From an uncultured bacterium (GTDB lineage: Bacteria > Bacillota > Clostridia > Oscillospirales > Oscillospiraceae), in NCBI GenBank assembly GCA_946548895.1, contig CAMNQF010000005.1:10595-74594 (forward strand): a DNA stretch of 64,000 bases, read 5' to 3'. Shown one piece after another: positions 18,910 through 45,703 of the stretch. A program made the translations under genes and the position numbers. The notes beneath the pieces were generated by a model. That model ran no database searches. It was not told where the DNA came from and saw only the letters and a list, made by a program, of their open reading frames with translations. The stretch's first letter is position 1. Every line of letters starts with the position of its first letter.

Positions 18910-21897
18910 CTAAATATTGGACTTTTTGCTCTTTTTAATGGTCCTGACCAGCATGAGAATGGAACCCGCGGCCAGCACGCCAAACACCACGTCGGCGGCC
19001 ACAATGGCGTTCTTCCACCAGGGCCGGATCTCAATGACCTGCATATTGGCGCTGACGCCGTTCATGGCGTTGGAGTTGGCCACCGTGTACAGAATATGCT
19101 TGGCGGCCTCCCGCATGGCCTGGCAGACATTGGGGTCGTCCTTATATTGAAGCAGCTTCTCGGTCCATTTGGAGCCGTCGTTGCAGTCCCAGCCGTCGCC
19201 CCCGGCCATCAGGCCGTTGAGCACGTCCATGTAGTTGTTGTTATTTGAGAAGTCGGTGAGGATGAAGCCGGGCATACCCCATTCCCCTCGAAGAATTCCA
19301 GTGAGCAGATTCTTGTCGCCGCCCGCCCAGACACAGCCCATGCGGTTGAAGCTGGTCATGACGCAGTAGGCCCCGGCCTCCGCCACGGGGTACTCAAAGG
19401 CTTGCAGGTAGATCTCCCGGGCCGCCTGCTCATTGGTCCACACGCAGATGCCGTCCCTGGCCGTCTCCTGATCGTTGAGGGCAAAGTGCTTCATGTATAC
19501 GTACACGCCTTTGGACTGGATGCCGGCCACCTCGGCGGCGCAGGTCTTGCCGGAGATGAAGGGGTCCTCGGAATAATACTCAAAGTTGCGCCCGGAGTAG
19601 GGGGTCCTGTGGATGTTGACGCCGGGGCCGTAGATGCCGGAGTAGGCCTTGCCGTTGGCCAGCAGGCAGTCGTTGCCCATGCTGCGGCCCACCGCCTCCG
19701 CGACGGCCGGGTCAAAGGAGGCGGCCAGCAGGTCCTCCGAGGTGTAGCTGGTGGAGGAGCCGCCGCCGGTGAGGGTGGCGGTGATGCCCTGAGGGCCGTT
19801 TTCGTCCTTGGTGGCGGGCTTGGACACGCTGGACACGGGCACGGTGCTGTGGTAGGTCTGGCCGATGAGCCGGGCCATCTCGTTGAAGGTCACCTGATCC
19901 ATCAGGTCGTCCCAGGTGTAGCTCTGGCCGTTCACCTCGGCGGCCCCGTCCAGGGGGACGCCGATGAACTGGGCCAGGTTGAGAGCGCCCTCCTTGCCCA
20001 TGGCGGGCATGGAGCCGGAGGTGTTCTTCTCGTACAGGGCGTTCATGAGGGCTGCCATCTCGTCGCTGGCGGCGATCTGGGCGGCGGCCTTGTAGCTCTT
20101 GGCGGTGATGTCCGCCTTGGGCATGGTTCCCTGCCAATCGGAGCGGGTGAGGTAGACGATATCGTTGGAGGAATCGCTGTCAAAGCGGTTCAAGTCGGCG
20201 TGGTCCAACTGGTTGACGATGGGAGCGCCGGTGGCGGCGGTGGCAAACACGCCGGTATCCAGGCTGGACACGGTGTATTTCGCGGCCAGGGAGGCGGCCC
20301 CGTCGGCGGTCATGCCGTCGGCGGCGGTGTAGCCCTTGGCGGCAAGGATGTTGTTCAGCGCCTCGTGGACCCCGTTGCCGCAGGCGAAATAGTAGTCTCC
20401 GGCGTCCAGGATATAGGTTCCGGCCCCATTGGCGTCGTAAGCCCGCAGCTCCGTCTTGGGCACGGTGACGGTGACGGAGGCGGTCTCCCCCGGGGCCAGG
20501 CCCACCTTCTGGTATCCCACCAGTTCTACCGCCGCCTTCTCAATGCCGTTCTGCCGGTCGTAGTCGGTGTAGGGGGACTGCATGAAGATCTCCACCACTT
20601 CTTTGCCCTCCACGCTGCCGGAGTTGGTCACATCCACGGTGAACGCCAGCTCATCCCCCTGCTCCGCCATGGACAGCGGGCCGTAGGAAAACTGGGTATA
20701 GCTCAGGCCGTAGCCGAAGGGATAGGCCACCGTGGAGGCATAGTCGTAGTCCCCGGCGTTCCCGGCGCCCATCACCGCGTCCTCATAGCGGGTTTCGTAG
20801 TAGCGGTAGCCCACGTAGATGCCCTCCTGATAGGCCACATAGTACTCGTTGTTGGTCCCGGCAAAGGCGAGGCCCTGGGCGGCGGCGTTGGTGTAGGAGG
20901 TGGCGTGGGCGTTCTGGATGGCGGGGGAGGTCAGGTTGTCGTAGCAGTAGGTGTCCACCAGCTTGCCCGAGGGGTTCACGGTCCCGTTGAGCAGGTCTCC
21001 GATAGTGCGGATGCCGCTCTGACCCACTTCGCCCACCCACAGGCAGGCGTCTACGCCGTAGTCCACGCCGCACACGGAGGGCTCCAGGAAGTCCAGCTCC
21101 ACCGCGTTGGCTACGTTCAGCAGGACGACAATCTTTTTCAAGTCCCCGGCGGACTTCAGCCCGGCCAGCTTGGACAGCAAAGCCCGCTCCTCGCCGGACA
21201 GCTCCAGAATGTTGCCGTCTCCGTCCCCCGCGCCGTACCAGGGCAGATCGGCCCCCTCGCCGCACACCCGGGAGATGACAAAAATGGCCGCGTCGCCGTA
21301 CTCCTTCACGGAATCCCATTCCTTATTGGAATAGGCGCTCAGGGGCGCCTCGTTGACCTTGTACCCGGCGTTGTCGAAGATGTAGTTGTTCAGGCTGCCG
21401 CCAGCCAGGGCGCGGCGGTAGTCCTTGCCCGCCCCCTCGGTGTAGAACGACCACATGGCGGGGTTGACGGAGAAGCCGTCCTCCTCCAGGGCGTCCTTCA
21501 GGCTCTGGGCCTTGGAGGTGTCCATGCCGCCGGAGCCGGTGCCGCCGTAGACGAAGCTGGCGGAGTTAACGCTGGCCAGGGTGATTTTGGAGCCGGAGGC
21601 CAGGGGCAGGGCGTTCTCCCGGTTGAGCAGCAACACGGAGCCGTTGGCCACCACCTGTTCCACCACCTTCTCCGCCTTCTCCACCTGCTGGGCGCTGGTG
21701 AAGTCGGCCTCGAAGTAGGTCTTGCCCGGGTCGCCGACGGTTTTCGTGGCCTCGATGCCCAGCACCATGTTGATGATGGAGGCGTAATTTCCGGCGATGG
21801 GCCCGGCGATCATGGTGAACGCGAACAGGACGGTGAATACGATGGACAGCGCGGTCCAAAGGCCGCGGCCCTTGATCTTAGCCTTTTTTTCCTTCAC
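18910..21897 (-). CDS. glycoside hydrolase family 3 (beta-glucosidase/xylosidase-like), permuted domain order, membrane anchored at both ends
   Basis: 995 aa with a GTG start and AGGAGGAA SD. The N-terminal TM helix is LWTALSIVFTVLFAFTMIAGPIA. Domain order is the GH3 C-terminal domain, then an Fn3-like region (GYGLSYTQFSY), then the catalytic N-terminal domain (NIHRTPYSGRNFEYYSEDP, KHFALNDQE, FILTDF). The C-terminal TM helix is AIVAADVVFGVLAAGSILMLV. Confidence 0.9.
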   Translation of the reverse strand: MKEKKAKIKGRGLWTALSIVFTVLFAFTMIAGPIAGNYASIINMVLGIEATKTVGDPGKTYFEADFTSAQQVEKAEKVVEQVVANGSVLLLNRENALPLASGSKITLASVNSASFVYGGTGSGGMDTSKAQSLKDALEEDGFSVNPAMWSFYTEGAGKDYRRALAGGSLNNYIFDNAGYKVNEAPLSAYSNKEWDSVKEYGDAAIFVISRVCGEGADLPWYGAGDGDGNILELSGEERALLSKLAGLKSAGDLKKIVVLLNVANAVELDFLEPSVCGVDYGVDACLWVGEVGQSGIRTIGDLLNGTVNPSGKLVDTYCYDNLTSPAIQNAHATSYTNAAAQGLAFAGTNNEYYVAYQEGIYVGYRYYETRYEDAVMGAGNAGDYDYASTVAYPFGYGLSYTQFSYGPLSMAEQGDELAFTVDVTNSGSVEGKEVVEIFMQSPYTDYDRQNGIEKAAVELVGYQKVGLAPGETASVTVTVPKTELRAYDANGAGTYILDAGDYYFACGNGVHEALNNILAAKGYTAADGMTADGAASLAAKYTVSSLDTGVFATAATGAPIVNQLDHADLNRFDSDSSNDIVYLTRSDWQGTMPKADITAKSYKAAAQIAASDEMAALMNALYEKNTSGSMPAMGKEGALNLAQFIGVPLDGAAEVNGQSYTWDDLMDQVTFNEMARLIGQTYHSTVPVSSVSKPATKDENGPQGITATLTGGGSSTSYTSEDLLAASFDPAVAEAVGRSMGNDCLLANGKAYSGIYGPGVNIHRTPYSGRNFEYYSEDPFISGKTCAAEVAGIQSKGVYVYMKHFALNDQETARDGICVWTNEQAAREIYLQAFEYPVAEAGAYCVMTSFNRMGCVWAGGDKNLLTGILRGEWGMPGFILTDFSNNNNYMDVLNGLMAGGDGWDCNDGSKWTEKLLQYKDDPNVCQAMREAAKHILYTVANSNAMNGVSANMQVIEIRPWWKNAIVAADVVFGVLAAGSILMLVRTIKKSKKSNI

Positions 21898-28158: not shown

Positions 28159-29046
28159 TCAGGGCTGGTAGGACCAGAACGCCGCCACATAGTCGATAAA
28201 GCTCTCCACCACCGGCGTTTTGTACCGATCCCGGTGGAACACCATGTAGACCATGTGAAAATCAATGGGAACCTGGGCGAGAGGGATCAGCGAAATGTCG
28301 TCAAACATTCGGACCCTGGGCGTGTCCAGAAGGATGGCCACATAGTCGCTGAGCTGGCAGATGCCATACATAGATTCCTCGTTTCCGTAATGGTGGTCCG
28401 CCGACAGGTGGTGCCGGGCCAGGAGCTTCTGGATGTCGCGGCCAATGGGCTGCTCCAGGTGATAGGAGATCAGCTTATGCCCCGCCAGGTCGGAAAAGTC
28501 CAGGGACTCACGGCTGTCAAGAGGGTGCCCCCGCCGGACCGTGGCCGCCAGCAGCTGGCACAAAATGGGCACAAAAAACAGGTCGCTCCCATCGGGCACA
28601 TGGGAGCAGAACCCCACATCCCATTCCCCCCGGCGGATGCGCTGAATGATCTCGTTGGTTTGCGCCTCAAAAATGTTGACCTTCACCGCGGGGCCCTTCA
28701 AGTCCCGGAAGGCCAGCAGAACCTGGGGGATAAAGTCGGATTGGATCGTGGGGATGCAGCCGACGTTGACGGTGCCGCTCAGGCCTCCCCCGTATTCCTT
28801 GGCCTTCGCCACGCCCTTGTCCAGGGTGCGCAGGGCCACGGAGACCGTGTCGTAGAATTCCTTTCCATACTTGGTGAGGACCACGTTCCGGCCGCTTTTT
28901 TCGAACAGCGCAATGCCCAGCTCCGCCTCCAGGGAGCTGATGGCGCCGCTGAGGCTGGGCTGGGTGATGTAGAGTTCTTTCGCGGCCTTGGTGTAGTGCT
29001 GAAGCTCGGCCAGCTTGCAGAAATAGTACAGGTGCGCGAGATTCAT
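28159..29046 (-). CDS. LysR-family transcriptional regulator
   Basis: MNLAHLYYFCKLAELQHYTKAAKELYITQPSLSGAISSLEAELG is the LysR HTH. The gene is divergent from the acyl-CoA operon. Confidence 0.9.
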   Translation of the reverse strand: MNLAHLYYFCKLAELQHYTKAAKELYITQPSLSGAISSLEAELGIALFEKSGRNVVLTKYGKEFYDTVSVALRTLDKGVAKAKEYGGGLSGTVNVGCIPTIQSDFIPQVLLAFRDLKGPAVKVNIFEAQTNEIIQRIRRGEWDVGFCSHVPDGSDLFFVPILCQLLAATVRRGHPLDSRESLDFSDLAGHKLISYHLEQPIGRDIQKLLARHHLSADHHYGNEESMYGICQLSDYVAILLDTPRVRMFDDISLIPLAQVPIDFHMVYMVFHRDRYKTPVVESFIDYVAAFWSYQP

Positions 29047-29261
29047 TCAGAGCCCCTCCCTTGTCACCCGCAGACTCGCCGCGGCGCGGAACGATAGGCG
29101 CGGCCTATGGTTTCCAGCTCCCCCGCAAGGCGCTTCCGATTGGACGCGGCGGGCATATGCGGGTACAATATTGTTTGTCAACACAAGGGACTCATTTCCA
29201 GATGTCAGTCCCATTATAGCAGAGAAAACTTCAAATTTCAAGACAAAAGGGGAGTCAAATC

Positions 29262-30443
29262 ATGAAGTTGTCCGAAAAGCAGTTCCAAGACTATCTGCTC
29301 CAGATCCGCGCCCTGGCCGAGGGCCCCTTCGATGAGATGCAAAAGGAGATTGAGGTCACCAACAAGTTCCCCGCCGAGTTCTACGACCTGGCCATCAAGA
29401 ACGACCTCTACCGGTTCTCCCTCCCCGAGAAGTACGGCGGGTGGGGTATGTCCGAGCTGGAGATTCTGAAGGTCCAGGAGGAGTTCTCCCGCGGCCCCGG
29501 CGGTATGCGGATGCACCTGCACTACGCCGCCGACATGAACTGGCGCATCCTGGACGACTACGGCAGCGACGAGTTGAAGGCCGAGTACATGGACAAGTTC
29601 CAGGACAAGACCATCTTCACCTGCTTCGCCCTGACCGAGGAGACCGGCGGCACCGGCGCCGACCTGCACACCACCGCCGTGCGCGACGGCGACGACTACA
29701 TCCTCAACGGCGAGAAGTGGCTGATCTCCCACACCGACTGCTGCGAGTTCGCCTACGTGTTCGCCGTCACCAACCCCGACAGCGACAAGGACGACCGCCT
29801 GTCCGGCTTCTTCGTCCCCGTGGACACCCCGGGCTATGAGGTGGTCCCCATGCCCCACATGATGGGCTGCCGCGGCGCCGGCCACACCGGCCTGAAGTTC
29901 ACCAATATGCGCCTGAACAAAAAGTACCTGCTGGGCAAAGAGGGCCAGGGCCTGGAGATCGCCCTGCACTCCCTGTCCGTCTCCCGGGCCCACATCGCCG
30001 TGTCCAACCTGGGCATGGCCCAGCGTATGCTGGAGATCAGCATCAAGCGCGCCCAGGACCGGGTCACCTTCGGCAAGCCCATCATCTCCCGCCAGGCCAT
30101 CAAGATGAAGATCGCCGAGATGTCCACCTGGATCCACGCCCTGCGCACCATGGTCTACGACTTCGGCAAGGACTATGACAACGATCCCCACGGCGAGTAC
30201 ATCGAGGAGAAGGCCGCCATGTGCAAGCTGTTCAGCATTGAGACGGTGAAGATGGTGTCCGACGAGATGCTGGAGATCTTCGGCGGCGTGGGCTACTTCG
30301 AGGACAATCCCTACGGCCCCGTGGAGCGGCTCTACCGCGACTGCCGCGCCATGTTCCTGGAGGAGGGCGCCCCCACCGTCCAGCGCATCACCATCGCCCG
30401 CAACACCGTCAAGCACGGCGGCACGCTGAAGTATCTGGACTGA
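29262..30443 (+). CDS. acyl-CoA dehydrogenase family protein (divergent, CaiA/CarC-like position)
   Basis: 393 aa. CFALTEETGGTGADL resembles the ACAD motif xLTEPxxGSD. Also present are GEKWLIS and the C-terminal CRAMFLEEGAPTVQR, which corresponds to the YEGT catalytic Glu region. Confidence 0.85.
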   Translation: MKLSEKQFQDYLLQIRALAEGPFDEMQKEIEVTNKFPAEFYDLAIKNDLYRFSLPEKYGGWGMSELEILKVQEEFSRGPGGMRMHLHYAADMNWRILDDYGSDELKAEYMDKFQDKTIFTCFALTEETGGTGADLHTTAVRDGDDYILNGEKWLISHTDCCEFAYVFAVTNPDSDKDDRLSGFFVPVDTPGYEVVPMPHMMGCRGAGHTGLKFTNMRLNKKYLLGKEGQGLEIALHSLSVSRAHIAVSNLGMAQRMLEISIKRAQDRVTFGKPIISRQAIKMKIAEMSTWIHALRTMVYDFGKDYDNDPHGEYIEEKAAMCKLFSIETVKMVSDEMLEIFGGVGYFEDNPYGPVERLYRDCRAMFLEEGAPTVQRITIARNTVKHGGTLKYLD

Positions 30444-30558
30444 TTGTCCGGCCCCTAGCGCTGAAAACATAAGACTGCACGGCGCGGCCGCCCCTCCCAG
30501 AGACTGTGGGGAGGTGGCGGCCGCGCCCGTATCATCGGCAGACAGGAGGGAATGCGGC

Positions 30559-31785
30559 GTGAAGCCTATGGAACAGATCAAGGTGGTGGAGCTGTCCACC
30601 TATCTGGCGGCGCCCACCGCGGCCAGAGTGCTGGCGGAGTGGGGCGCGGACTGCATCAAAATCGAATCTCCCCAGGGCGACCCTGCCCGCACCCAGGGCG
30701 CGGTATTCAATATGCCCTACAGCGACGAGGAAAATCTGGCCTTTGACGTGGCCAACTTCAACAAGCGATTCGTGACGCTGAACCTGAAAAGCGAGACGGG
30801 GCTGGAGGTGGCCTACAAGCTGCTGGCCGGGGCGGACGTCTTTGTCACCAGCGTGCGCACCAAGAGCCTGAAAAAGATGGGCCTGGACTACGAGACGCTG
30901 AAGGAGCGTTTCCCCCGCCTGGTGTTCGCCCAGGTCCTGGGCTACGGCGAGCAGGGCCCGGAGAAGGACAGCGCGGGCTTTGACGTCACCTGCTACATGG
31001 CCCGGGGCGGCGTGTTCGGCACCACGGTGAACCGGGGGGACGCCCCCATGATCCCCACCAACGGCTTCGGGGATTTCCAGGTGTCCCTGGCCCTGGCGGG
31101 GGGCGTGGCCTCCGCGCTGTTCAACCGAACCCGCACCGGCCTGGGCGACAAGGTGACGGTGAGCCTCCACCACGCGGCGGTGTTCGCCCTCAGCACCGGC
31201 ATCATCAGCGCCCAATACGGCAATCCCTACCCCAAGAGCCGCAGGGAAGTGGTGAACCCCTTCAACAACGTCTACCACACCAGCGACGACAAGTGGGTGG
31301 TCATCTGCTGCCCGGAGTACGACCGGGACTTCAACAAGATCATGCGCCTCATCGGCCGGGAGGATCTGGTGGACAGCCCGGAGCTGTCCAACTGCGCCCA
31401 GGTCAACGCCCGGGGCGAGATCTGGAAGGTGGTGGACGTGCTGGACGAGGCCTTTGGGAAAATGACCCGCGGCGAGGCCATGTCCCTGTTCAAGGGCGCG
31501 GACTTGCCCTGCGAGTCCGCCAACGAGCCGCTGGACATCTACGAGGATGAGCAGTGCTGGGCCAACGACATCCTGTGCCGGTACCCCTACCCCCAGGGCG
31601 GGAGGAACTTCGCCACCAACCCCGTCCGCTTTTCCTCCCTGGGCACCCCGGACTACTTCTCCGGCGGGAAGCAGGGCTCCGCCACTGAGGAAGTGATGGC
31701 CGCGCTGGGCTACACCCGGGAGCAGGTGGACGCGGCCATTGCCCAGGGCGCCGTGGAGGGCAGCAAAAACCTCAAGCGGCTGTGA
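30559..31785 (+). CDS. family III CoA-transferase (CaiB/BaiF type)
   Basis: The sequence IKVVELSTYLAAPTAARVLAEWGADCIKIESPQGDPAR is the typical N-terminus of family III CoA transferases. GTG 30559 is preferred (GGAGGG 8 nt upstream), with ATG 30568 as the alternative. Confidence 0.85.
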   Translation: MKPMEQIKVVELSTYLAAPTAARVLAEWGADCIKIESPQGDPARTQGAVFNMPYSDEENLAFDVANFNKRFVTLNLKSETGLEVAYKLLAGADVFVTSVRTKSLKKMGLDYETLKERFPRLVFAQVLGYGEQGPEKDSAGFDVTCYMARGGVFGTTVNRGDAPMIPTNGFGDFQVSLALAGGVASALFNRTRTGLGDKVTVSLHHAAVFALSTGIISAQYGNPYPKSRREVVNPFNNVYHTSDDKWVVICCPEYDRDFNKIMRLIGREDLVDSPELSNCAQVNARGEIWKVVDVLDEAFGKMTRGEAMSLFKGADLPCESANEPLDIYEDEQCWANDILCRYPYPQGGRNFATNPVRFSSLGTPDYFSGGKQGSATEEVMAALGYTREQVDAAIAQGAVEGSKNLKRL

Positions 31786-31822
31786 GCGGGGCTCACAGCC
31801 GCGGGGGAAGGGGGAGAGCTAC

Positions 31823-33463
31823 TTGAAGATAGCGGCGAGGATCGACCCGGAGCGGCAAAGGTACTATACCCGGCAGGGCTGGTGGGGGACGCGCACCCTG
31901 TTGGACCACTGGAATGAGACGGTTCAGCGGTACGGGGACAGGCGGTATGTCTGCGGCGACAACGGCGTGTGGCTCACCTACCGCCAGGTGGACGGCTACG
32001 CGGGCCGTCTGGCCGCGTATTTGAGGGAGAACGGCGTGGAATGCGGCGACGTCGCCGCCATACAGCTGCCCAACTGGACCGCCTACTGCGTCGCGTATGT
32101 GGCCGGATTAAAGGCGGGCGCGGTCCTCCACCTGATCTCCCGGAACACGGAAAAGTCGGAGCTGGCGGACCTGTTGACGCGGTCGGGCGCGAAGGCCCTG
32201 GTCTGTCCCACCAGCTTCCGGGGTCTGGATTATGAGGCGGCGCTGTCGAATTACCGCAGGGACATCCCCTCCCTGCGGTGCGTGGTGCTCGTGGACGAAC
32301 AGGAACCGGCCCGCAGCGGCCATACCACGCTGACTCAGGTGCTGAAAACCTGCCGGCCATTGGACGCATCTCCCAAGGCCGATGCCAATGACGTGGCGGC
32401 GCTGTTAAACACCTCGGGGACCACCGGCTCCCCCAAGATCGTCATGATTACCCACAACAACATCCTGTTCAGCGAGACGCAGTTCAACCGGGAGCTGGGC
32501 GTCACCCAGGACGACATCATGTTCATGCCCGCGCCGCTCCACCACGCCACCGGGTTCCACCACGGGCTGATCGCGCCCATGCTGGCCGGCGCGGGGGTGG
32601 TCCTCCAGCAGCGGTTCCAGCGGGAGCAGGCGGTCCGGCTCATCCTCCGGGAGCAGTGCACCTACTCCATGGGGGCCACCCCCTTTGTCTACGACATCCT
32701 CCAGGAGATGGAGCGCACCGGGGTCCGTCTGCCCAGCATGAAATTCTTCCTGTGCGGCGGGGCCCATGTACCCCGAAGCCTGGTCCGGCGGGGGATGGAC
32801 CTGGGCCTGCCCATCTGCGAGGTCTACGGCTCCACCGAGAGCCCGCCCCACGCCTTCGTCCCGGTGGCGGAGGCCGAGAAGCTGGCCGGCTCCGTCTCAG
32901 GCCGCCCCATGGGGGGCGTGGAGGTGCGGCTGGTGGACGGCAACGGGCGGGACGTGCCGCCGGGGGTGAAGGGCGAGGAGTGGTCCAGGGGTCCCAACGT
33001 GTTCGTGGGCTACCTGGGGGACCAGGCCGCCACCGACCAGGCGCTCCATGCCGGTGGCTGGTTCGCCAGCGGCGATTTGTGTGTGGGGGACGAGGCGGGA
33101 AACCTGCGGGTGGTGGGCCGGAAAAAGGAGATCATCATCCGGGGCGGCGAAAACCTGTCCATCCACCGCATCCGGGAGACGCTGGAGGGCTGTCCCGGCG
33201 TGGCGGACTGCGCCGTGGTGGGCAAGCCCGACCCCCGCTTCGGGGAGCGGATCTGCGCCTGCGTGGTGCCGGAGGCGGGGCGGACCGTGACCCTCCAGGA
33301 CCTGTTGGGCTATGTGTCCGCCAACCATGTGCCCAAGTACCTGTGGCCGGAGATGGTGGAGATTGTGGACGCCATCCCCCGCACGGAGAGCGGGAAGATC
33401 AAATGCTGTTCACTGGTGCGGGAGATTCAGGCCAGGGACCGGGAGGGGGCAAACAGCCGATGA
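31823..33463 (+). CDS. AMP-dependent acyl-CoA ligase
   Basis: The AMP-binding motif is LNTSGTTGSPKIVMITH, followed by YGSTE and GWFASGD...VVGRKKEIIIRGGENL. TTG 31823 comes after GGGGGAGAG, which places the start after the preceding stop at 31785. Confidence 0.85.
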   Translation: MKIAARIDPERQRYYTRQGWWGTRTLLDHWNETVQRYGDRRYVCGDNGVWLTYRQVDGYAGRLAAYLRENGVECGDVAAIQLPNWTAYCVAYVAGLKAGAVLHLISRNTEKSELADLLTRSGAKALVCPTSFRGLDYEAALSNYRRDIPSLRCVVLVDEQEPARSGHTTLTQVLKTCRPLDASPKADANDVAALLNTSGTTGSPKIVMITHNNILFSETQFNRELGVTQDDIMFMPAPLHHATGFHHGLIAPMLAGAGVVLQQRFQREQAVRLILREQCTYSMGATPFVYDILQEMERTGVRLPSMKFFLCGGAHVPRSLVRRGMDLGLPICEVYGSTESPPHAFVPVAEAEKLAGSVSGRPMGGVEVRLVDGNGRDVPPGVKGEEWSRGPNVFVGYLGDQAATDQALHAGGWFASGDLCVGDEAGNLRVVGRKKEIIIRGGENLSIHRIRETLEGCPGVADCAVVGKPDPRFGERICACVVPEAGRTVTLQDLLGYVSANHVPKYLWPEMVEIVDAIPRTESGKIKCCSLVREIQARDREGANSR

Positions 33464-34005
33464 TCCATCAGGAGTACGGCCCCCGGCGCAGCCGGGCCAC
33501 CCGCAAGCCCTCCGTCACCTGCCCGGAGACCACCTTTTACCGCTGCCCCCGCTGCGGACGGCTTCTCCAGGAGCTGGAGCGGCGGGAGAAAGGGGATGAT
33601 CCATGCTGCTGCGGCGGGGCCATGGAGCGCCTGGAACCTGTGGCGCCGGAGGACCTGCCCGGCGGCGTGTTGCTGGACTACCGCATTGTGGGCGGCTTCA
33701 ACGACAACGCGGTGCAGTTCTTCTGGCAGGACGCGGACCAGGAGAACCGGCTGGAATGGGTCTATCTGCGCACCTTTACCGGGGGCTGCATCAAGTATCC
33801 GCCGGAGAAGAAGCGGCCCCCCATCATCTTCCCCCTGGCGGACGAGGACGCTTACGCCTACTGCGACCAATCACCTTGTCTGGAGTGCGTCTTCCGCTGC
33901 AAGCGGGGCTTCATCCTGTACGCGTACCTGTCCGGCGTGGGGCTGGCGGAGCTTCCCATCGACCGGATGGACCCCTACTGGCAGACAAAGCCCGCGTCCA
34001 ATTAG
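33460..34005 (+). CDS. desulforedoxin-like (CxxC...CC) Cys-rich protein with unknown C-terminal domain
   Basis: 181 aa with an ATGA overlap with the ligase stop and a GGGAGGGGG SD. FYRCPRCGRLLQELERREKGDDPCCCGGAMERLEP matches the desulfoferrodoxin centre-I pattern. The C-terminal about 125 aa has a second cluster, YCDQSPCLECVFRC, and contains no His. Confidence 0.7.
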   Translation: MIHQEYGPRRSRATRKPSVTCPETTFYRCPRCGRLLQELERREKGDDPCCCGGAMERLEPVAPEDLPGGVLLDYRIVGGFNDNAVQFFWQDADQENRLEWVYLRTFTGGCIKYPPEKKRPPIIFPLADEDAYAYCDQSPCLECVFRCKRGFILYAYLSGVGLAELPIDRMDPYWQTKPASN

Positions 34006-34020
34006 ATAGGAGGAACTAGC

Positions 34021-35256
34021 TTGAATTCAGAACAAAAACGCTGGCGGAGCTTTATCATCGCCCTGTTTATCCTGCTGTTCGGCGGCTTTCTCTACGCCTG
34101 GAGCGTGGTCACGCTGCCCCTGGAGCAGAAATACGGCTGGAGCAGCTCGTCCATCTCGCTGGCCTATACGCTGAACTTCCTGGTCACGGCTCTGGTCACC
34201 CTGTTCGGCGGGAAGCTGAAAAGCCGGATGGGCATCCGCCGCACCGTCCTGGCCGGCGGCGTCTTTACCGGCGCGGGCCTGGTGCTGTGCAGCATGATGC
34301 GCGGGCAGATCTGGGAGCTCTATCTGGGCTTCAGCGTGCTGTACGGCATCGGTGTCGCCTTCATCTCCCCGGCCCTGGTGTCCTACTGCGTGCAGCTCCT
34401 CCCCGGGCGGTCCGGCCTGGCGGGCGGGGCCTCCAGCGGAGCCTTTGCCCTGGGGGCGCTGATCTGGGCCCCGGCGGCCACCAAGATCCTGGCGTGGAAG
34501 GGCGACGTCTCCGCCTCCTTCCTCTACCTGGGCATTCTCATGATGGTACCCATCGTCGTCCTGTCCTTTTTCCTGACGGAGGTCTCCGCAACGCCCCAGG
34601 CCGGGCGGGAGGAGGAGAAGAAACCTGCCGCGCAGGGCGGCCTGCTGTGCATGGGGCGGGGCGAGATGCTGCGCACCGGGGCCTTTTATGCCATCGCCGT
34701 CACCTTTGTCCTGGGCCTGGCCTGCGGCGCCATGGTCATGTCCTATGGCGCGCCCATCCTGAAAATCACTTTCCCGGAGGTGACGGACCAGACCACCGCC
34801 CTGCTGGTGGGGGTGTTCTCCATCATGTCCGCCGTGGGCCGTATGTTCTGGGGCACCCTCTCAGACAAGCTGGGCAAGCTGAAGACCCTGCTGCTGCTGT
34901 GCGCCGCCACCGGCGTATCCATGGCGGTGCTCATCCTGGTGTCCAGCCTGCCCCTCTATATCGCCATGCTGGTGCTGGCCACGCTGTGCTACGGCGGATT
35001 TGCCTGCATCGTGGGACCCCTGACCTCCGAGGTGTTCGGCCCGGAGCACTTTGACGAAAACTATTCCGCCATCTATCTGGTCTACACCATCGCCAGCCTG
35101 ATCGGCCCGGTGATGATCTCCGCCGTCCAGGAGGCCACCGGGGCGCTGTCGGGCGCGTTCGTCGCCGGGCTGGGCTTCTGCGTAGCGGGGGCGCTGCTGT
35201 GCGCGGGCCTGCTCCGCTGGGCGAAAGGAAAGCGGGCAGAGACGCCGCAGCATTAA
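34021..35256 (+). CDS. MFS transporter (oxalate/formate antiporter-like)
   Basis: 411 aa with a TTG start and AGGAGG 7 nt upstream. It has 12 TM-like segments. The N-terminus WRSFIIALFILLFGGFLYAWSVVTLPLEQKYGWS is typical of OFA-type MFS carboxylate carriers. Confidence 0.85.
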   Translation: MNSEQKRWRSFIIALFILLFGGFLYAWSVVTLPLEQKYGWSSSSISLAYTLNFLVTALVTLFGGKLKSRMGIRRTVLAGGVFTGAGLVLCSMMRGQIWELYLGFSVLYGIGVAFISPALVSYCVQLLPGRSGLAGGASSGAFALGALIWAPAATKILAWKGDVSASFLYLGILMMVPIVVLSFFLTEVSATPQAGREEEKKPAAQGGLLCMGRGEMLRTGAFYAIAVTFVLGLACGAMVMSYGAPILKITFPEVTDQTTALLVGVFSIMSAVGRMFWGTLSDKLGKLKTLLLLCAATGVSMAVLILVSSLPLYIAMLVLATLCYGGFACIVGPLTSEVFGPEHFDENYSAIYLVYTIASLIGPVMISAVQEATGALSGAFVAGLGFCVAGALLCAGLLRWAKGKRAETPQH

Positions 35257-35301
35257 ATGAAAAGTTAAAACATAATACTATGAAACCAGGAGGAATCACC
35301 C

Positions 35302-36441
35302 ATGGGACATATTATGACTGAGGAGCAAAAAGAGCTGGTCAAAATGGTGCGCGATTTCGCGCAAAAGGAGGTCAAGCCCCGGGCGGCGGAGTTTGACGCC
35401 ACCGGCGAGTTCCCGCTGGAGCTGCTGAAAAAGACCTTTGACATGGGCCTGCATATGCTGGAGTTCCCCGAGGAGGTGGGCGGCATGGGCCTGGACTTCC
35501 AGACCACCGCCATGATGTTTGAGGAGCTGGCCAAGGCGGACGCGGGTTTTGCCATCTCCCTGGTGACCACCTTCGTGGCCTTCCGCACGGTGATGCAGTC
35601 GGGCACCGAGGAGCAGAAGCAGCTCTTTGTGGACAAGATCGCCCCCGGCGGTTTCGGGGCCTTCTGCCTGACGGAACCGGACGCCGGCTCCGATGCCGGG
35701 GCCATGCGGGGCACCGCCGTCCGGGATGGGGACGAGTATGTCATCAACGCCAACAAGTGCTTCATCACCACCGGCCAGTACGCCGATATCTACGTGGTCA
35801 TGGCCTCCACCGACAAGAGCAAGGGCTCCCGGGGCATTTCCGCCTTCATTGTGGAAAAGGACCGCCCCGGCATTACCGTGGGCAAGCATGAAGACAAGCT
35901 GGGCCTGCGCCTGTCCAACACCTGCAACGTGAGCTTTGACGATGTGCGCGTCCCCGCCAGCCACCGCATCGGCGCGGAGGGCGAGGGCCTCAAGAGCGCC
36001 TTGGGCGCGCTGAACATCTCACGGGCCTTTGTGGGCACCCTGGCGGTGGGCATCTGCCAGGCGGCCATCGACGAGTGCCTGAAGTACGTGCAGGAGCGCA
36101 AGCAGTTTGGTCAGCCCATCGCCGATTTCCAGCTGGTGCAGGGGATGCTGGCCGACATGGAGATCCAGACCGAGGCCGCCCGGCAGCTGGTCCAGTACTC
36201 CATGCGGCTCATCGACAACGGCATGGACGTGGTCAAGGCCGGGGCCATCACCAAGTGCTTCTGCGGCGACACCGTGGTCAAGGTCACCACCGACGCCATC
36301 CAGGTGTTCGGCGGCTACGGCGTCAGCCGGGAGTATCCTGTGGAGAAGCTCTTCCGGGACTCCAAGGTGTTCCAGATCTTTGAGGGCACGAACCAGATCC
36401 AGCGCCTCACCATTGCCAAGGAGCTGTATCGCGGGAACTGA
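35302..36441 (+). CDS. acyl-CoA dehydrogenase (butyryl-CoA dehydrogenase-like)
   Basis: 379 aa. The motifs are FCLTEPDAGSDAG, ITNG-like CFITTG, and IFEGTNQIQRL with the catalytic Glu. Confidence 0.9.
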   Translation: MGHIMTEEQKELVKMVRDFAQKEVKPRAAEFDATGEFPLELLKKTFDMGLHMLEFPEEVGGMGLDFQTTAMMFEELAKADAGFAISLVTTFVAFRTVMQSGTEEQKQLFVDKIAPGGFGAFCLTEPDAGSDAGAMRGTAVRDGDEYVINANKCFITTGQYADIYVVMASTDKSKGSRGISAFIVEKDRPGITVGKHEDKLGLRLSNTCNVSFDDVRVPASHRIGAEGEGLKSALGALNISRAFVGTLAVGICQAAIDECLKYVQERKQFGQPIADFQLVQGMLADMEIQTEAARQLVQYSMRLIDNGMDVVKAGAITKCFCGDTVVKVTTDAIQVFGGYGVSREYPVEKLFRDSKVFQIFEGTNQIQRLTIAKELYRGN

Positions 36442-36457
36442 GGCTGTGTTATGAATC

Positions 36458-36497
36458 GGAAAACGCGGGAAAGAAGTGATTCCTTCCCGCGTTTTCC
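36458..36497 (+). terminator. intrinsic terminator of the acyl-CoA operon
   Basis: GGAAAACGCGGGAA (36458-36471) pairs with TTCCCGCGTTTTCC (36484-36497) as a 14-bp stem. Confidence 0.7.
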
Positions 36498-36701
36498 CGT
36501 CTAAAACCATCTGCTATAGGCGGGAGCATGGCAAAGAGGGGTTACAGCCTGTACTTTGTCTCTACAAAAGTTAAGAAACTGGAGAAGAAGCTGGCGCGGA
36601 TAGAAAGTGAGCTGCGCCAAAAGGACAACGATACCAATCTGTATGCAGGGCCGTTCTGAATTTTTCGGTTTTTTGTTCTATCTCAGAAAGCGTACAGGAT
36701 T

Positions 36702-37600
36702 TTAAACTGGCGGACGGGACGTGAAAGGAAAGACGATCGCCAACACAAAGCTGTTAATATCCAGATCCTGCCGGATTGACAGAATCCCTCCATACTTTTT
36801 CGCGATATGCTGAATACTTTTAGTACCAAAGCCGTGATAGCCGCTTTTCTCATCGGACGAGACGGGGAGCCCGTCTCGAAATTTTAACGGGCAGCTGCAA
36901 TAGTTGTCCAGCTTAATCGTAAGGGCGTCGCTGGACGCGGAAATGTTTAAACTGAGAATGCGGTTTTCCTCTTCTTCGCGGCGAAGGCACTCAATGGCGT
37001 TGTCCAGCGCGTTCCCGAACAGAGAATAGATATCGGGTTCCTCCATAAAGCCGAGCCGGCTTCCATCGGCAATAACGGCCAGATTGATTTTTAGATGGCT
37101 GCACAGGAGGGATTTCTCCGTCAGGATCGTGTCTAAAACGTCATTCCCCGTTTTAATCATGATGTCGTATATCTGTATCGCATCCTCAGCTTCAGAGAGA
37201 AACTGGTCCTCACCTTCTACCCCCCTGTGATTTCTCAGCCGGGCGATCTGATGCTTTAGGTCGTGGCACTTTTGGTTGATGATGTCGATCGTCTCCCTGG
37301 ACAACCGCTGCTGCTGCTCGGCGTCATGGTAAATCTGAGCCATAAGCTTGTGCTCATTTTTGATCTTAGATCGGTCAAAAAGTTGGAATTGGATGCCCAG
37401 CAGAAGAACACAACAAATCGCCTCATAGATGAGTGTGGACAAATTTGTATAGTTGAACATATAGGTCCAATAGTGAAACACATTGATAATCAAAGCGGTC
37501 ACGATACAGAAAAGCATAAGAAGCCGGTTTTCGAAATCCACCTGCTCCGTCAGCACACGCCGTATGAGAAATCGGTAGGCGGCAAGCCACATGAGCACCG
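36702..37600 (-). pseudogene. 5'-truncated GHKL sensor kinase (paralog of 23789..25081)
   Basis: Low-GC ORF. KCHDLKHQIARL and NALDNAIECL...YHGFGTKSIQHIAKKYGG match the intact LytTR-system kinase. Only about 3 TM helices remain, and there is no partner regulator. The first about 25 codons of track ORF 36702..37658 run antisense through the GH3 remnant. Confidence 0.6.
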
Positions 37601-38292
37601 TGACGCATACGAACCGCAACTCTGTGTGCACTTGGTCCAACGAGCAGGCCATCCGCAAAATTTACCTGGCCCCCTTTGAGATCACCATCAAAACCTCCGA
37701 TTGCAACGGCGTGATGTCCTCCTACAACAATATTGGTACCCGCACGGCTAAGGGCCATTACGCGCTGCTGACCAGTGTTTTGCGGGATGAGTGGGGATTT
37801 GGCGGCGTGGTCATCACCGACCTGGCCACCGATTCCGGCACCGCCAATGATATGTCTCTGGCCGCCGGTGTGGACCTGCAGCTGACCACCGGCATCAATG
37901 AGTTGAGTACGACCAAAGAGAACCGCATTCGCAATGCCTTGGTTCAGGCCACCAAGCGCGTTTGCTATGCCGTGGTCAACAGCTCCGCCATGAACGGGAT
38001 GGCGGGCGGCGCCGGCATGGTTTCCAGCGGTACGCCGGCCTATGTCGTTATGCTCGCGGCGATTGATATACTGGGGCTTCTGGCTTTGGTGACAGCTGAG
38101 GTATTTACGGTTCGGAAGTGCCGCGTCGAGGCGCCGGTTCTGACCGAGGGGGAGCAGAAAAAGGCGCGCAAAAAGGCAATTGTCAAAGCTGTGGTCACGA
38201 TTGTGGCGCTTGCCGTTATCTTAGTTGCCGCGGTAATATATATTAATTCTCAGATGATTGGCGAGTCCATATTCGACTATATTTTCCATTAA
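37588..38292 (+). pseudogene. 5'-truncated GH3 glycosidase (C-terminal third only)
   Basis: SHMSTVTHTNRNSVCTWSNEQAIRKIYLAPFE aligns by eye with KHFALNDQETARDGICVWTNEQAAREIYLQAFE of the intact GH3. GVVITDL aligns with GFILTDF. A C-terminal TM anchor is present. An in-frame TAG sits at 37576-37578 just upstream. Confidence 0.65.
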
Positions 38293-38352
38293 GCATTCAC
38301 CAGCATGATAAAACAGCACGCGGCAAAAGGATGTTCCGCGGCGATACGGCAG

Positions 38353-44488: not shown

Positions 44489-44536
44489 GGGTCTAAGCCT
44501 CTCTCCCGCCGCATATCATGCAGGGAGGTGAAGCGT

Positions 44537-45703
44537 ATGCGAAAGAAGAGGACAAGTAGGCCGTGGGTCCGGGGGCTGCGGGTGGGGGCGGCGGTGCTGG
44601 TGGGATCGCTGGCGCTGTGGCTGGCCTGGCTGGTGGGGGACCCCGCCGCCGCCCTGGACGACCTGCGTGAGCTGGCGGGCAGCGCCCAGGTGTCCCTGGC
44701 CCTGCTGTCGGCGGAGCTGGGGCTGGAGGACCGCCGGGACGGCCTGTCGGGCTGGGACAGGCTGGTGCTGGCCCAGTCCTCCCTGCTGAAGGCGGTCCCG
44801 CCCTCCCAGGGGCCGGAGCCCTCCGGCCCGCCCCCGGAGGAGACGGGCGACCTGCTGGAGCTGGACCCGGCCGGCGAGGACGAGGAGCCCAGCGAGCCTG
44901 TCCCCACCGCCGCGCCGCAGGAGGGCATTATACCCCGGACCATGGTGGCGGGGTCCTCCGCCAAGTACGTCACGTGGGAAAACGTGTCCCTCTACAACCA
45001 CACCGACTATGCGATTGACATACCTGCCCTCATTGAGAACGCGCCCCAGCTGTCCGGGGCGGGGGAGGGGCCCAAGGTGCTGATCTACCACTCCCACGCC
45101 ACCGAGTCCTACACCATGGAAGGGACGGACGTCTACGAGCCCAGCGGCGACCACCGCACCTTGGACACCAACTATAACATGGTCCGGGTGGGGGAGGAGA
45201 TGAAGGCGGTATTTGAGGCGGCGGGCATCGGCGTGGTCCACGACACCACCTTATACGATTACCCCAGCTATAACGACGCCTATGTCCGTTCGGTGGAAGG
45301 GGTGTCGGAGAACTTGAAGAAATACCCCTCCATCGTGCTGGCGCTGGACGTCCACCGGGACGCCCTGGTGGCCAGCGACGGCACGATTTATAAGGTGGTG
45401 GCGGGGACGGTGGACAACTGCGCCCAGGTGATGATGGTGATGGGCAGCGACGCCACCGGCCAGGTCCACCCCAACTGGAAGGTGAACCTGGCGCTGGCGC
45501 TGAATATCCAGTCGGCGTTGAGCAGCAAGTGGTCCACCCTGGCACGGCCGCTGGTGCTGCGGCCCACCCGGTTCAACCAGCACCTGTCCACGGGGATGCT
45601 GCTGGTGGAGGTGGGCACCCACGGGAATACCCTGAGCGAGGCCATCACCGCCGCCCGGCTGTACGCCCGGACGGTGGTGGAGCTGATGGAAAGCGGCGGA
45701 TAG
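44537..45703 (+). CDS. spoIIP: stage II sporulation protein P
   Basis: It has an N-terminal TM helix. KVLIYHSHATESYT and LALDVHRDA are SpoIIP signature blocks. The start is ATG 44537 after GGGAGG. Confidence 0.85.
   Translation: MRKKRTSRPWVRGLRVGAAVLVGSLALWLAWLVGDPAAALDDLRELAGSAQVSLALLSAELGLEDRRDGLSGWDRLVLAQSSLLKAVPPSQGPEPSGPPPEETGDLLELDPAGEDEEPSEPVPTAAPQEGIIPRTMVAGSSAKYVTWENVSLYNHTDYAIDIPALIENAPQLSGAGEGPKVLIYHSHATESYTMEGTDVYEPSGDHRTLDTNYNMVRVGEEMKAVFEAAGIGVVHDTTLYDYPSYNDAYVRSVEGVSENLKKYPSIVLALDVHRDALVASDGTIYKVVAGTVDNCAQVMMVMGSDATGQVHPNWKVNLALALNIQSALSSKWSTLARPLVLRPTRFNQHLSTGMLLVEVGTHGNTLSEAITAARLYARTVVELMESGG

Follow-up and report, generated by a model that had tools for sequence, protein, structure and literature searches.

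A conserved CoA-thioester gene cassette that pairs a divergent acyl-CoA dehydrogenase with a desulfoferrodoxin-derived cysteine-rich protein in an uncultured member of the Oscillospiraceae

We analysed a coenzyme A (CoA)-thioester gene cassette at positions 28159-36441 of a 64,000-nucleotide stretch of DNA (hereafter the window; contig CAMNQF010000005.1 of assembly GCA_946548895.1, forward-strand positions 10,595 to 74,594) from an uncultured bacterium of the Oscillospiraceae. Open reading frame (ORF) listing and Pfam domains identified seven genes, a divergent LysR gene on the minus strand followed by six genes on the plus strand. Two of these, encoding a divergent acyl-CoA dehydrogenase (ACAD1) and a small cysteine-rich (Cys-rich) protein derived from desulfoferrodoxin, are the core of the cassette. 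The features of the locus are:

28159-29046, minus strand: LysR-family regulator, divergent from the operon (HTH_1 69.3 bits, LysR_substrate 105.3 bits)
29094-29108: LysR-type operator ATAGGCGCGGCCTAT, a perfect palindrome with T-N11-A, between lysR and ACAD1 and 168 nt upstream of the ACAD1 start
29141-29169, plus strand: promoter-like site for the operon, TGGACG-17-TACAAT (consensus scan)
29241-29213, minus strand: stronger, leftward promoter-like site for LysR, TTGAAA-17-TATAAT with TG (consensus scan)
29262-30443, plus strand: ACAD1, divergent acyl-CoA dehydrogenase and signature enzyme of the cassette (three ACAD Pfam domains)
30481-30527, plus strand: GC-rich hairpin between ACAD1 and the CoA-transferase, no U tract (-45.2 kcal/mol, z -4.55; 0 of 200 shuffles as stable)
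30559-31785, plus strand: family III (CaiB/BaiF-type) CoA-transferase (PF02515 284.2 bits)
31823-33463, plus strand: ATP-dependent acyl-CoA ligase, FadK/PRK06087-like (PF00501 262 bits, PF13193 63.8 bits)
33460-34005, plus strand: desulfoferrodoxin-derived Cys-rich protein, 181 aa (fold and profile homology)
34021-35256, plus strand: major facilitator superfamily (MFS) transporter, lactate/OFA-like (MFS_1 170 bits)
35302-36441, plus strand: ACAD2, Bcd/AcrC-like acyl-CoA dehydrogenase (Pfam ACAD domains)
36458-36497, plus strand: terminator hairpin closing the operon (-27.5 kcal/mol, z -6.33; 0 of 200 shuffles fold as well)

The intergenic gaps from ACAD1 through ACAD2 were 115, 37, -4, 15 and 45 nt, and the ORFs, Pfam domains and folding bore out a preliminary description of this DNA as a divergent LysR gene and six tightly packed, co-oriented genes ending at a terminator. 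Three gene models were corrected from the DNA reading. The CoA-transferase most likely starts at GTG 30559, 9 nt 3' of AGGAGG, and the ligase at TTG 31823. The Cys-rich gene is read in the third frame from an ATG that overlaps the stop codon of the ligase (ATGA), with ORFs 33596-34009 and 33603-34019 rejected as models for it.

Of 195 candidate stretches in a scan that took one genome for each species, 178 encoded a relative of the Cys-rich gene, and 79 loci of those relatives were compared by tblastn with the window proteins and by clustering of all ORFs. The same gene set recurred in these loci, so the cassette is more than a product of chance. Carriers belonged to Lachnospiraceae, Clostridium, Acetobacterium, Sporomusaceae, Desulfitobacterium, Bacillaceae and one Desulfuromonadota relative; Hungatella, Enterocloster, Lacrimispora, Eggerthellaceae and acetogens are among the carriers. 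ORF families for ACAD (78 of the 79 loci), the Cys-rich protein (76), the electron transfer flavoprotein (ETF) subunits EtfA (70) and EtfB (67), the CoA-transferase (70), LysR (66) and the ligase (66) were present in most loci. Median identity to the window proteins was 79% for ACAD1, even across phyla, 67% for the CoA-transferase, 61% for ACAD2, 51% for the Cys-rich protein, 50% for the ligase and 45% for LysR, relatives of which were detected by tblastn in 72 loci. The usual gene order in Lachnospiraceae, Clostridium and Acetobacterium was ACAD1-CoA-transferase-ACAD2-EtfB-EtfA-ligase-Cys, followed by a carrier and LysR; in Bacillaceae, Sporomusaceae, Desulfitobacterium, Pelotomaculum and a Geopsychrobacteraceae genome it was ACAD1-Cys-MFS-CoA-transferase-FixC-FixX-ACAD2-EtfB-EtfA-ligase. 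The carriers were GntP-like (42 loci), an unnamed polytopic protein with 12 transmembrane segments (31) or ACS-type MFS (19), and a PaaI-type thioesterase was encoded in 24 loci. No hydratase, thiolase or hydroxyacyl-CoA dehydrogenase was found among the ORF families (at least 80 aa) common to more than 19 of the 79 loci, families in 17 loci or fewer having mostly been left unscanned; the sole 3-hydroxyacyl-CoA dehydrogenase observed was in a single locus (L034). The toolkit first recognised in the window was confirmed, and the cassette, a point missed at first, is a member of a conserved family, most members of which carry etfBA inside. The label of an anaerobic pathway is plausible, and Bacillaceae carry the cassette too. 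A literature search, which did not extend to supplements, found no publication describing this pairing of an ACAD with a desulfoferrodoxin-like protein or the cassette, and the main text of a C. ljungdahlii transcriptome study (PMC5640608) has no mention of 'acyl-CoA dehydrogenase', 'CoA transferase' or 'CoA ligase'. A Geobacillus adipate paper (PMC13135583) proved, in the part of its text available, to be unrelated to the cassette.

ACAD1 and the desulfoferrodoxin-like protein form the core of this family. An ACAD1 orthologue with at least 65% identity was encoded in 72 of the 79 loci found through the Cys-rich gene, and all seven loci without one were cut by a contig end or had short flanks. 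In the reverse direction, the Cys-rich gene was present in 46 of 77 metagenome loci found through ACAD1, including all 36 with at least 8 kb of downstream sequence, while all 31 loci that did not show it had at most 7.5 kb downstream; one of these 31 (L113), with a truncated ligase, may be a true exception to the pairing. The two genes were immediate neighbours in 12 loci. In two minimal Pelosinus loci (L015 and L035) the pair was found with no ligase, CoA-transferase, ACAD2 or ETF within 13-20 kb, and in one further locus a nitroreductase adjoined the pair. A metagenome-assembled genome of the Syntrophomonadaceae (L005:234-2757) has two copies of the desulfoferrodoxin-like gene flanking a single ACAD1. 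Seven metagenome loci (L136, L143, L144, L146, L147, L152 and L155) showed a variant arrangement, ACAD1-CoA-transferase-ligase-Cys-(LysR)-ACAD1', with two ACAD1 paralogues that are 74-78% identical to that of the window and lack any close match to ACAD2 or ETF alongside; this variant may be the Eggerthellaceae form of the cassette. In Sporomusa acidovorans an ACAD1-Cys-CoA-transferase unit is followed by genes for a UbiD-type decarboxylase and a small PAC_bac-like protein (L052:11975-13887), and two 2-hydroxyacyl-CoA dehydratase D-component genes lie upstream (L052:401-2887). These neighbours may offer a clue to the class of substrate.

The Cys-rich protein is a descendant of desulfoferrodoxin (superoxide reductase). 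It had no Pfam match at E<=10, including none to PF01880, and its homologues (225 clusters of 262 candidates) were nearly all named hypothetical, with a few tagged as desulfoferrodoxin N-terminal domain (PF06397). The top Foldseek matches of its AlphaFold2 (AF2) model (pLDDT 73.6) were desulfoferrodoxin and Treponema superoxide reductase (1dfx and 1y07; E 6e-5, TMt up to 0.78), and the VIA all-against-all comparison gave both a Z of 11.8 over 116-118 residues, with the next match at 8.4. The profile of the family reached true desulfoferrodoxins at E 1e-9 to 1e-6, and hhalign aligned the two families at 99.4% (E 6.4e-22), placing the YAYC motif of the Cys-rich family (C135) on the centre II cysteine of desulfoferrodoxin. 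The CxxC...CC motif of centre I is kept almost without exception (C29, C32 and C51 in 78 of 78 sequences, C50 in 77). A second site, C135, C140, C143 and C147 (Cx4Cx2Cx3C), is conserved to the same degree, each cysteine being kept in 77-78 of the 78 sequences, as is C21; relative to desulfoferrodoxin the protein adds three invariant cysteines. None of the four centre II histidines has a conserved counterpart, no column of the 78 sequences exceeding 50% His, which rules the protein out as a superoxide reductase of the known kind. The family also has a basic N-terminal tail of 22 residues with invariant R10, K16 and P17, which is disordered in the AF2 model, and a C-terminal extension of about 35 residues. 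SORGOdb names four classes of superoxide reductase, none of which is described with an all-cysteine centre II in the sections available (PMC3116461). The preliminary description had noted the Cys-rich protein, correctly, and left it uninterpreted; it can now be placed as desulfoferrodoxin-derived and as the obligate partner of the divergent ACAD.

ACAD1 contains the N-terminal, middle and C-terminal ACAD domains (PF02771, PF02770 and PF00441), all above cut-off. Its AF2 model (pLDDT 81.4) has the canonical ACAD fold, with TM 0.85-0.89 at 24-31% identity to solved ACADs; Tfu_1647 was the top structural neighbour by a narrow margin, and a cyclohex-1-ene-1-carboxyl-CoA dehydrogenase was among the top ones. 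ACAD1 has no close solved relative, its PDB matches scoring 157-187 bits, including CarC (6fah_C) and Bcd (5ol2_C) at this ordinary level. Among the characterised ACAD equivalogs covered by NCBIfam (AcrC, CaiA, cyclohexane-type, glutaryl-CoA, desulfinase) none reached its cut-off, the best being AcrC with 234.4 against 640. In a FastTree phylogeny of 53 ACADs, ACAD1 formed a tight clade of its own on a stem of 1.51 substitutions per site. The unusual FLEEGAP block pointed out earlier is real: ...RAMFLEEGAPTVQR of ACAD1 aligned with ...ITEIYEGTSEVQR of C. difficile Bcd (5ol2_C). Since LEEG of ACAD1 aligns to IYEG of 5ol2_C, the catalytic Glu of the YEG block is retained, and E367, E368 and G369 were invariant among 21 orthologues, across which mean column identity was 83%. 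A metal site within ACAD1, formed from its invariant His and Cys residues, was considered and dropped. Homologues at E<=1e-150 comprised 607 protein clusters, some from Eggerthellaceae, all with generic names. A search of 400 further genomes sampled from the phylum gave no ACAD1 orthologue (E<=1e-120); the cassette is rare in the phylum as sampled, a statement about the sample that does not prove absence.

The second dehydrogenase has a different history. ACAD2 fell inside a clade of cassette ACAD2 proteins (20 rows, support 99) in the same tree, nearest to the type of Negativicutes, Peptococcales and Bacillaceae, and by this placement it is the orthologue of the ETF-linked ACAD of the cassette family; its best NCBIfam equivalog was AcrC (388.8 against 640). 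These scores and the tree, in which ACAD2 is Bcd/AcrC-like, agree with the earlier view of a divergent first ACAD and a Bcd-like second. The CoA-transferase scored far below every NCBIfam equivalog cut-off, with formyl-CoA transferase best (164 against 442) and the CaiB, Frc, succinate-glutarate and mesaconate models at 93/413, 147.9/504, 134.4/750 and 119/700; it too has no close solved relative (best PDB match 4ed9_A, 137 bits). With NF004758 (PRK06087, FadK-type medium-chain) the ligase scored 660.1 bits, just below the cut-off of 736, which its orthologue in Hungatella hathewayi just passes (737.5). For the carrier, neither the SfMCT L-lactate transporter model (262.8/320) nor the OFA family model (164.7/374.85) reached its cut-off and the general MFS_1 model alone did. 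This carrier, OFA-type in the preliminary description, is peculiar to this species, with weak matches (24-28% identity, tblastn) in 2 of the 79 loci. The BaiG-type bile salt MFS model (NF038246) gave 81.4 against 400, and no other bai-specific model was among the matches. The possibility, raised at the outset, that the orthologues would fall inside a characterised clade was not borne out, as no gene reached an NCBIfam equivalog cut-off and no close solved homologue was found.

Control by the LysR regulator was supported at the level of the operator. Of 71 ACAD1 upstream regions, 46 had the motif ATAG-N7-CTAT between -121 and -173 relative to the gene start, compared with an expectation of 0.59 regions per shuffled set (background 0.013 per 260 nt), and 45 of the 67 matches to it in the same loci were at this single upstream position. 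The set includes loci with lysR at the far end of the cassette. This conservation supports the LysR control proposed in the preliminary description and indicates that the unit begins with ACAD1. The regulator itself combines HTH_1 and LysR_substrate domains with a T-N11-A operator at the target promoter, as LysR-type regulation demands, and it did not reach any NCBIfam equivalog cut-off. The promoter consensus scan gave 3 sites where 1.6 were expected. The terminator hairpin was not listed by a consensus terminator scan because its stem is trailed by just four U. The hairpin at 30481-30527 occurs once in the genome and was therefore rejected as a repeat element; it may be an mRNA stabiliser or processing site, and could set differing mRNA levels for ACAD1 and the downstream genes.

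The ETF_alpha and ECH_1 domains had no match on the window's contig, the matches of this genome lying on other contigs, which bears out the earlier remark that the window has no enoyl-CoA hydratase or etfAB genes. The genome search that had been called for revealed a single, ordinary etfBA on contig C22, outside the cassette and adjoining another ACAD, and the encoded Etf shares 54-58% identity with the Etf of a Hungatella cassette. No FixC or FixX was found in this genome. The window cassette is therefore a rearranged form, in which ACAD2 has moved to the end, etfBA has been lost from the cassette and a new carrier gained. Among the 79 loci a FixC-type gene was present in seven, with a FixX-type gene adjoining in six of those. 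Given etfBA in most related cassettes and these FixC-type genes, the electron route is less open than was first held, even though the window itself is indeed without etfAB. In Pelosinus and Sporomusa acidovorans (3 of the 79 loci) the ACAD1-Cys pair adjoins a gene for an HdrD-type protein (about 670 aa) that begins with four membrane helices and also contains a 4Fe-4S dicluster and two CCG domains, and no etfBA is present in the locus. HdrD-type proteins of this kind link ETF to menaquinone in syntrophic butyrate oxidisers. This genome also encodes, on contig C1 (L002:1150-3063, minus strand), a 637-aa fusion of a full ACAD, an ETF-alpha FAD domain and rubredoxin, adjoining an ODP/metallo-beta-lactamase (flavodiiron-type) gene. 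This is the architecture of BOOR (butyryl-CoA:oxygen oxidoreductase), the Bcd-EtfA-rubredoxin fusion of Fusobacterium, which passes electrons from butyryl-CoA to O2 (PMC12288474), so an ACAD feeding an Fe(Cys)4 centre has biochemical precedent. In the bbu cluster, too, a small Fe-S protein accompanies an ACAD-like enzyme (PMC8364193).

We give about an even chance to the reading that the cassette encodes a LysR-induced CoA-thioester redox cycle acting on a small imported carboxylate, with the desulfoferrodoxin-like protein as the electron partner of ACAD1. In such a cycle the MFS carrier would import the acid, the FadK-like ligase would prime the first acyl-CoA using ATP, and the family III CoA-transferase would then shift CoA from product to fresh substrate. 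The two flavin ACADs would carry out the chemistry and the product would leave as the free acid. ACAD1 would be the substrate-specific enzyme, paired with the desulfoferrodoxin-derived protein, which would most likely use its two Cys4 metal sites to pass single electrons to or from the FAD of ACAD1; ACAD2 would work with ETF on a more generic step, served by the etfBA elsewhere in this genome. The carrier role is suggested by the invariant centre I and second Cys4 site, the HdrD-type neighbours and the BOOR and bbu precedents. On balance the cycle most likely runs reductively and uses the acid as an electron sink, a direction favoured by the lack of beta-oxidation genes, the product-recycling transferase and the EtfBA or FixC/FixX-type context. 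As to the substrate class, context points to a small, probably unsaturated or substituted, mono- or dicarboxylate. As substrates 3-nitropropionate (in view of the nitroreductase next to the pair in one locus), adipate-type dicarboxylates (in view of Tfu_1647 as top structural neighbour) and cyclohexanecarboxylate were considered and dropped. Overall, the first interpretation of the locus was partly supported.

A more specific version of the redox cycle is possible but tentative, namely that ACAD1 and its partner constitute a new acyl-CoA redox system, a superoxide-reductase scaffold rebuilt as a carrier with two Fe(Cys)4-type centres that, as dedicated electron partner of this one ACAD, replaces or bridges to ETF and links the acid to quinone- or ETF-linked electron transport in anaerobes of gut and sediment. 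That the cassette hides a new type of ACAD electron partner is accordingly a possibility that we hold well short of probable. If the partner is a redox carrier, it would represent both a new electron partner for ACADs and a new fate for the superoxide reductase fold.

Several observations weigh against a redox partnership with ACAD1. With its catalytic Glu retained and a fold typical of ACADs, ACAD1 could simply use ETF, and zinc in the Cys4 sites would make the partner structural. The window cassette is without ETF in an assembly that is 95.9% complete. No fusion of ACAD1 to its partner was found, and the search for longer homologues gave one match, a 746-aa metagenome protein (P0270) in which a FadK-like ligase is fused to the desulfoferrodoxin-like protein (residues 559-729, sharing 49% identity with its window counterpart); the fusion is represented by one cluster on 12 contigs and may be a read-through artefact. 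The ligase gene also lies directly upstream of the partner gene in Lachnospiraceae, Clostridium and Acetobacterium, and pairwise identities of the partner correlated with those of the ligase at r 0.90 and with those of ACAD1 at r 0.82, descriptive values that are confounded by kinship. As to direction, oxidation to quinone would be just as consistent with the FixC/FixX-type genes and with the occurrence in Bacillaceae, direction and substrate both being read from context.

An unlikely alternative is that ACAD1 is a redox-neutral eliminase like BbuA, which would remove a beta- or gamma-leaving group from an acyl-CoA to give an enoyl-CoA that ACAD2 and ETF would then reduce in an energy-yielding step; the desulfoferrodoxin-like protein would keep the redox state of the ACAD1 flavin or be an accessory, as the ferredoxin BbuD may be. 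The architecture does parallel bbu in its ACAD-like enzyme, class III CoA-transferases, small Fe-S protein, transporter and thioesterase, as set out in the available sections of PMC8364193, a PaaI-type enzyme of the last kind being the one encoded in 24 of our loci. The different histories of the two ACADs also fit, with the long ACAD1 stem and the poor correlation of ACAD2 with the other genes in pairwise identity (r 0.33-0.47, again descriptive and kinship-confounded), and the extreme conservation of ACAD1 is what demanding chemistry would lead one to expect. However, the likeness to BbuA is one of description and not of sequence comparison, ACAD1 retains the normal catalytic Glu, and the transporters are anion carriers and not BCCT. 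The metagenome loci with two ACAD1 paralogues and no close ACAD2 or ETF adjoining also misfit a fixed scheme of eliminase and reductase.

Quite unlikely, in our judgement, is an oxidative cassette in which two successive dehydrogenations would feed the acid to catabolism and pass electrons to ETF and the quinone pool. The anaerobic cyclohexanecarboxylate route combines a family III transferase and two ACADs in this way, cyclohexane-type models came second for the ligase (372 bits) as well as for ACAD1 and ACAD2 (179 and 334 bits), and the cyclohex-1-ene-1-carboxyl-CoA dehydrogenase among the structural neighbours of ACAD1 points the same way. Ties to quinones are also provided by the FixC/FixX-type genes and the HdrD-type protein (7, 6 and 3 of the 79 loci) in hosts that respire, such as Bacillaceae, Desulfitobacterium and Geopsychrobacteraceae. 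The cyclohexane-type scores, however, are far under their cut-offs (792, 650 and 650) and barely apart from generic ACAD matches, a downstream hydratase, dehydrogenase or thiolase family common across the 79 loci was not found, and strict fermenters and acetogens carry the version with ETF only. Finally, it is very doubtful that the Cys-rich protein has a role other than electron transfer, whether as a structural subunit that binds zinc, as an assembly factor or regulator of ACAD1 or the ligase, or as a scavenger of superoxide or oxygen that protects the flavoenzymes: zinc is often bound by Cys4 sites, a weak zinc-ribbon match was present (TIGR02605, E 0.089), the disordered basic tail is conserved, a ligase fusion exists, the ancestry lies in superoxide reductase and the ACAD-rubredoxin fusion of this genome serves oxygen removal, but the all-cysteine second site leaves a scavenger neither the four centre II histidines nor an open coordination position, the desulforedoxin-type CxxC...CC motif is to our knowledge an iron site in every characterised relative, and the surrounding genes, with their HdrD-type and ETF products, are all of a redox character.

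The host is a high-GC spore-former, as indicated by the GC profile and a SpoIIP gene at 44528-45703. The DNA runs containing the locus were mostly rodent-gut metagenomes, and it was also present, at 96-99% identity, on two contigs from the human gut. Contigs C29 (about 18.6-34.4 kb) and C1 (about 153.5-158.3 kb) of this genome hold additional CoA-thioester cassettes, which combine a ligase with family III transferases, GntP-like carriers and ACADs; unlike the window cassette, these have enoyl-CoA hydratase genes adjoining the ACADs. Directly downstream of the operon, positions 36500-38300 have a low GC content (0.53 against about 0.63 in the surroundings) and contain a 43-codon ORF past the terminator, a GHKL-only kinase remnant (36702-37658, minus strand) and a 233-aa GH3 glycosidase fragment (37591-38292). 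These fragments look like gene remnants at a rearrangement point. Elsewhere in the window, a 995-aa GH3 glycosidase (18910-21897, minus strand) has a permuted Pfam order, with the C-terminal domain first, then an Fn3-like domain and then the N-terminal catalytic domain.

Several conversions in the gut that matter to the host depend on CoA-thioester cassettes built in this way (cai, car, bai, bbu), and the analogy first drawn with them, of an importer, a priming ligase, a family III CoA-transferase and ACADs, was sustained. The present cassette is widespread (178 species genomes) and as yet uncharacterised, and its ACAD1-partner pair is an easily recognised marker that could be used to trace the substrate in cultured carriers. 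The cai system of E. coli (CaiTABC), which is linked to FixABCX, shares with the cassette the importer, ligase, family III transferase and ACAD, and the versions in Bacillaceae and Negativicutes also have ETF with FixC/FixX. It differs in its BCCT carrier, as opposed to the MFS carrier here, and in having no counterpart of ACAD1 and its partner, which the cassette adds; the window's CaiA scores were 131/217 against 540 and its CaiB score 93 against 413, and the H. hathewayi ligase gave 177.5 against 651 for CaiC. Caffeate respiration in Acetobacterium woodii (CarABCDE) combines a CoA-transferase, ligase, ACAD and EtfBA in one operon that serves as an electron sink. Compared with Car and Bcd-EtfAB, the cassette has a different gene order, two ACADs and a desulfoferrodoxin-like partner, and ACAD1 matches them at the 157-187 bits given above. 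The E. coli ydiF-ydiO-ydiQRST-fadK cluster comprises a FadK-type ligase, an ACAD, a CoA-transferase (YdiF, of family I) and ETF with FixC/FixX-type genes; it resembles the cassette in the type of ligase (660 bits for the window protein with PRK06087), but the YdiO model scored 156-234 against 537 and the cluster has no desulfoferrodoxin-like gene.

With desulfoferrodoxin and 2Fe superoxide reductase the Cys-rich protein shares the two-domain fold, CxxC...CC of centre I and the centre II cysteine in YAYC. It departs from them in the loss of the four His of centre II, the three gained Cys, the N-terminal tail and C-terminal extension, and in being encoded always with an ACAD. In the bbu system of Emergencia timonensis, an ACAD-like key enzyme, class III CoA-transferase(s), a small iron-cysteine protein and a dedicated transporter are likewise induced by the substrate, according to the available sections of PMC8364193, and the bbu thioesterase has a counterpart in many relatives of the cassette. 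The differences, judged by description and not from the BbuA sequence, are a di-[4Fe-4S] ferredoxin, a BCCT carrier in place of the MFS, GntP-like or unnamed 12-segment carriers of the cassette family, and no ligase or second ACAD. BOOR of Fusobacterium nucleatum resembles the proposed pair as an ACAD that gives electrons to an Fe(Cys)4 centre; as described in the accessible part of PMC12288474, its rubredoxin is fused and reached via the ETF FAD domain, with O2 as acceptor and a flavodiiron protein alongside, whereas the partner in the window is a separate protein encoded in a substrate-specific cassette.

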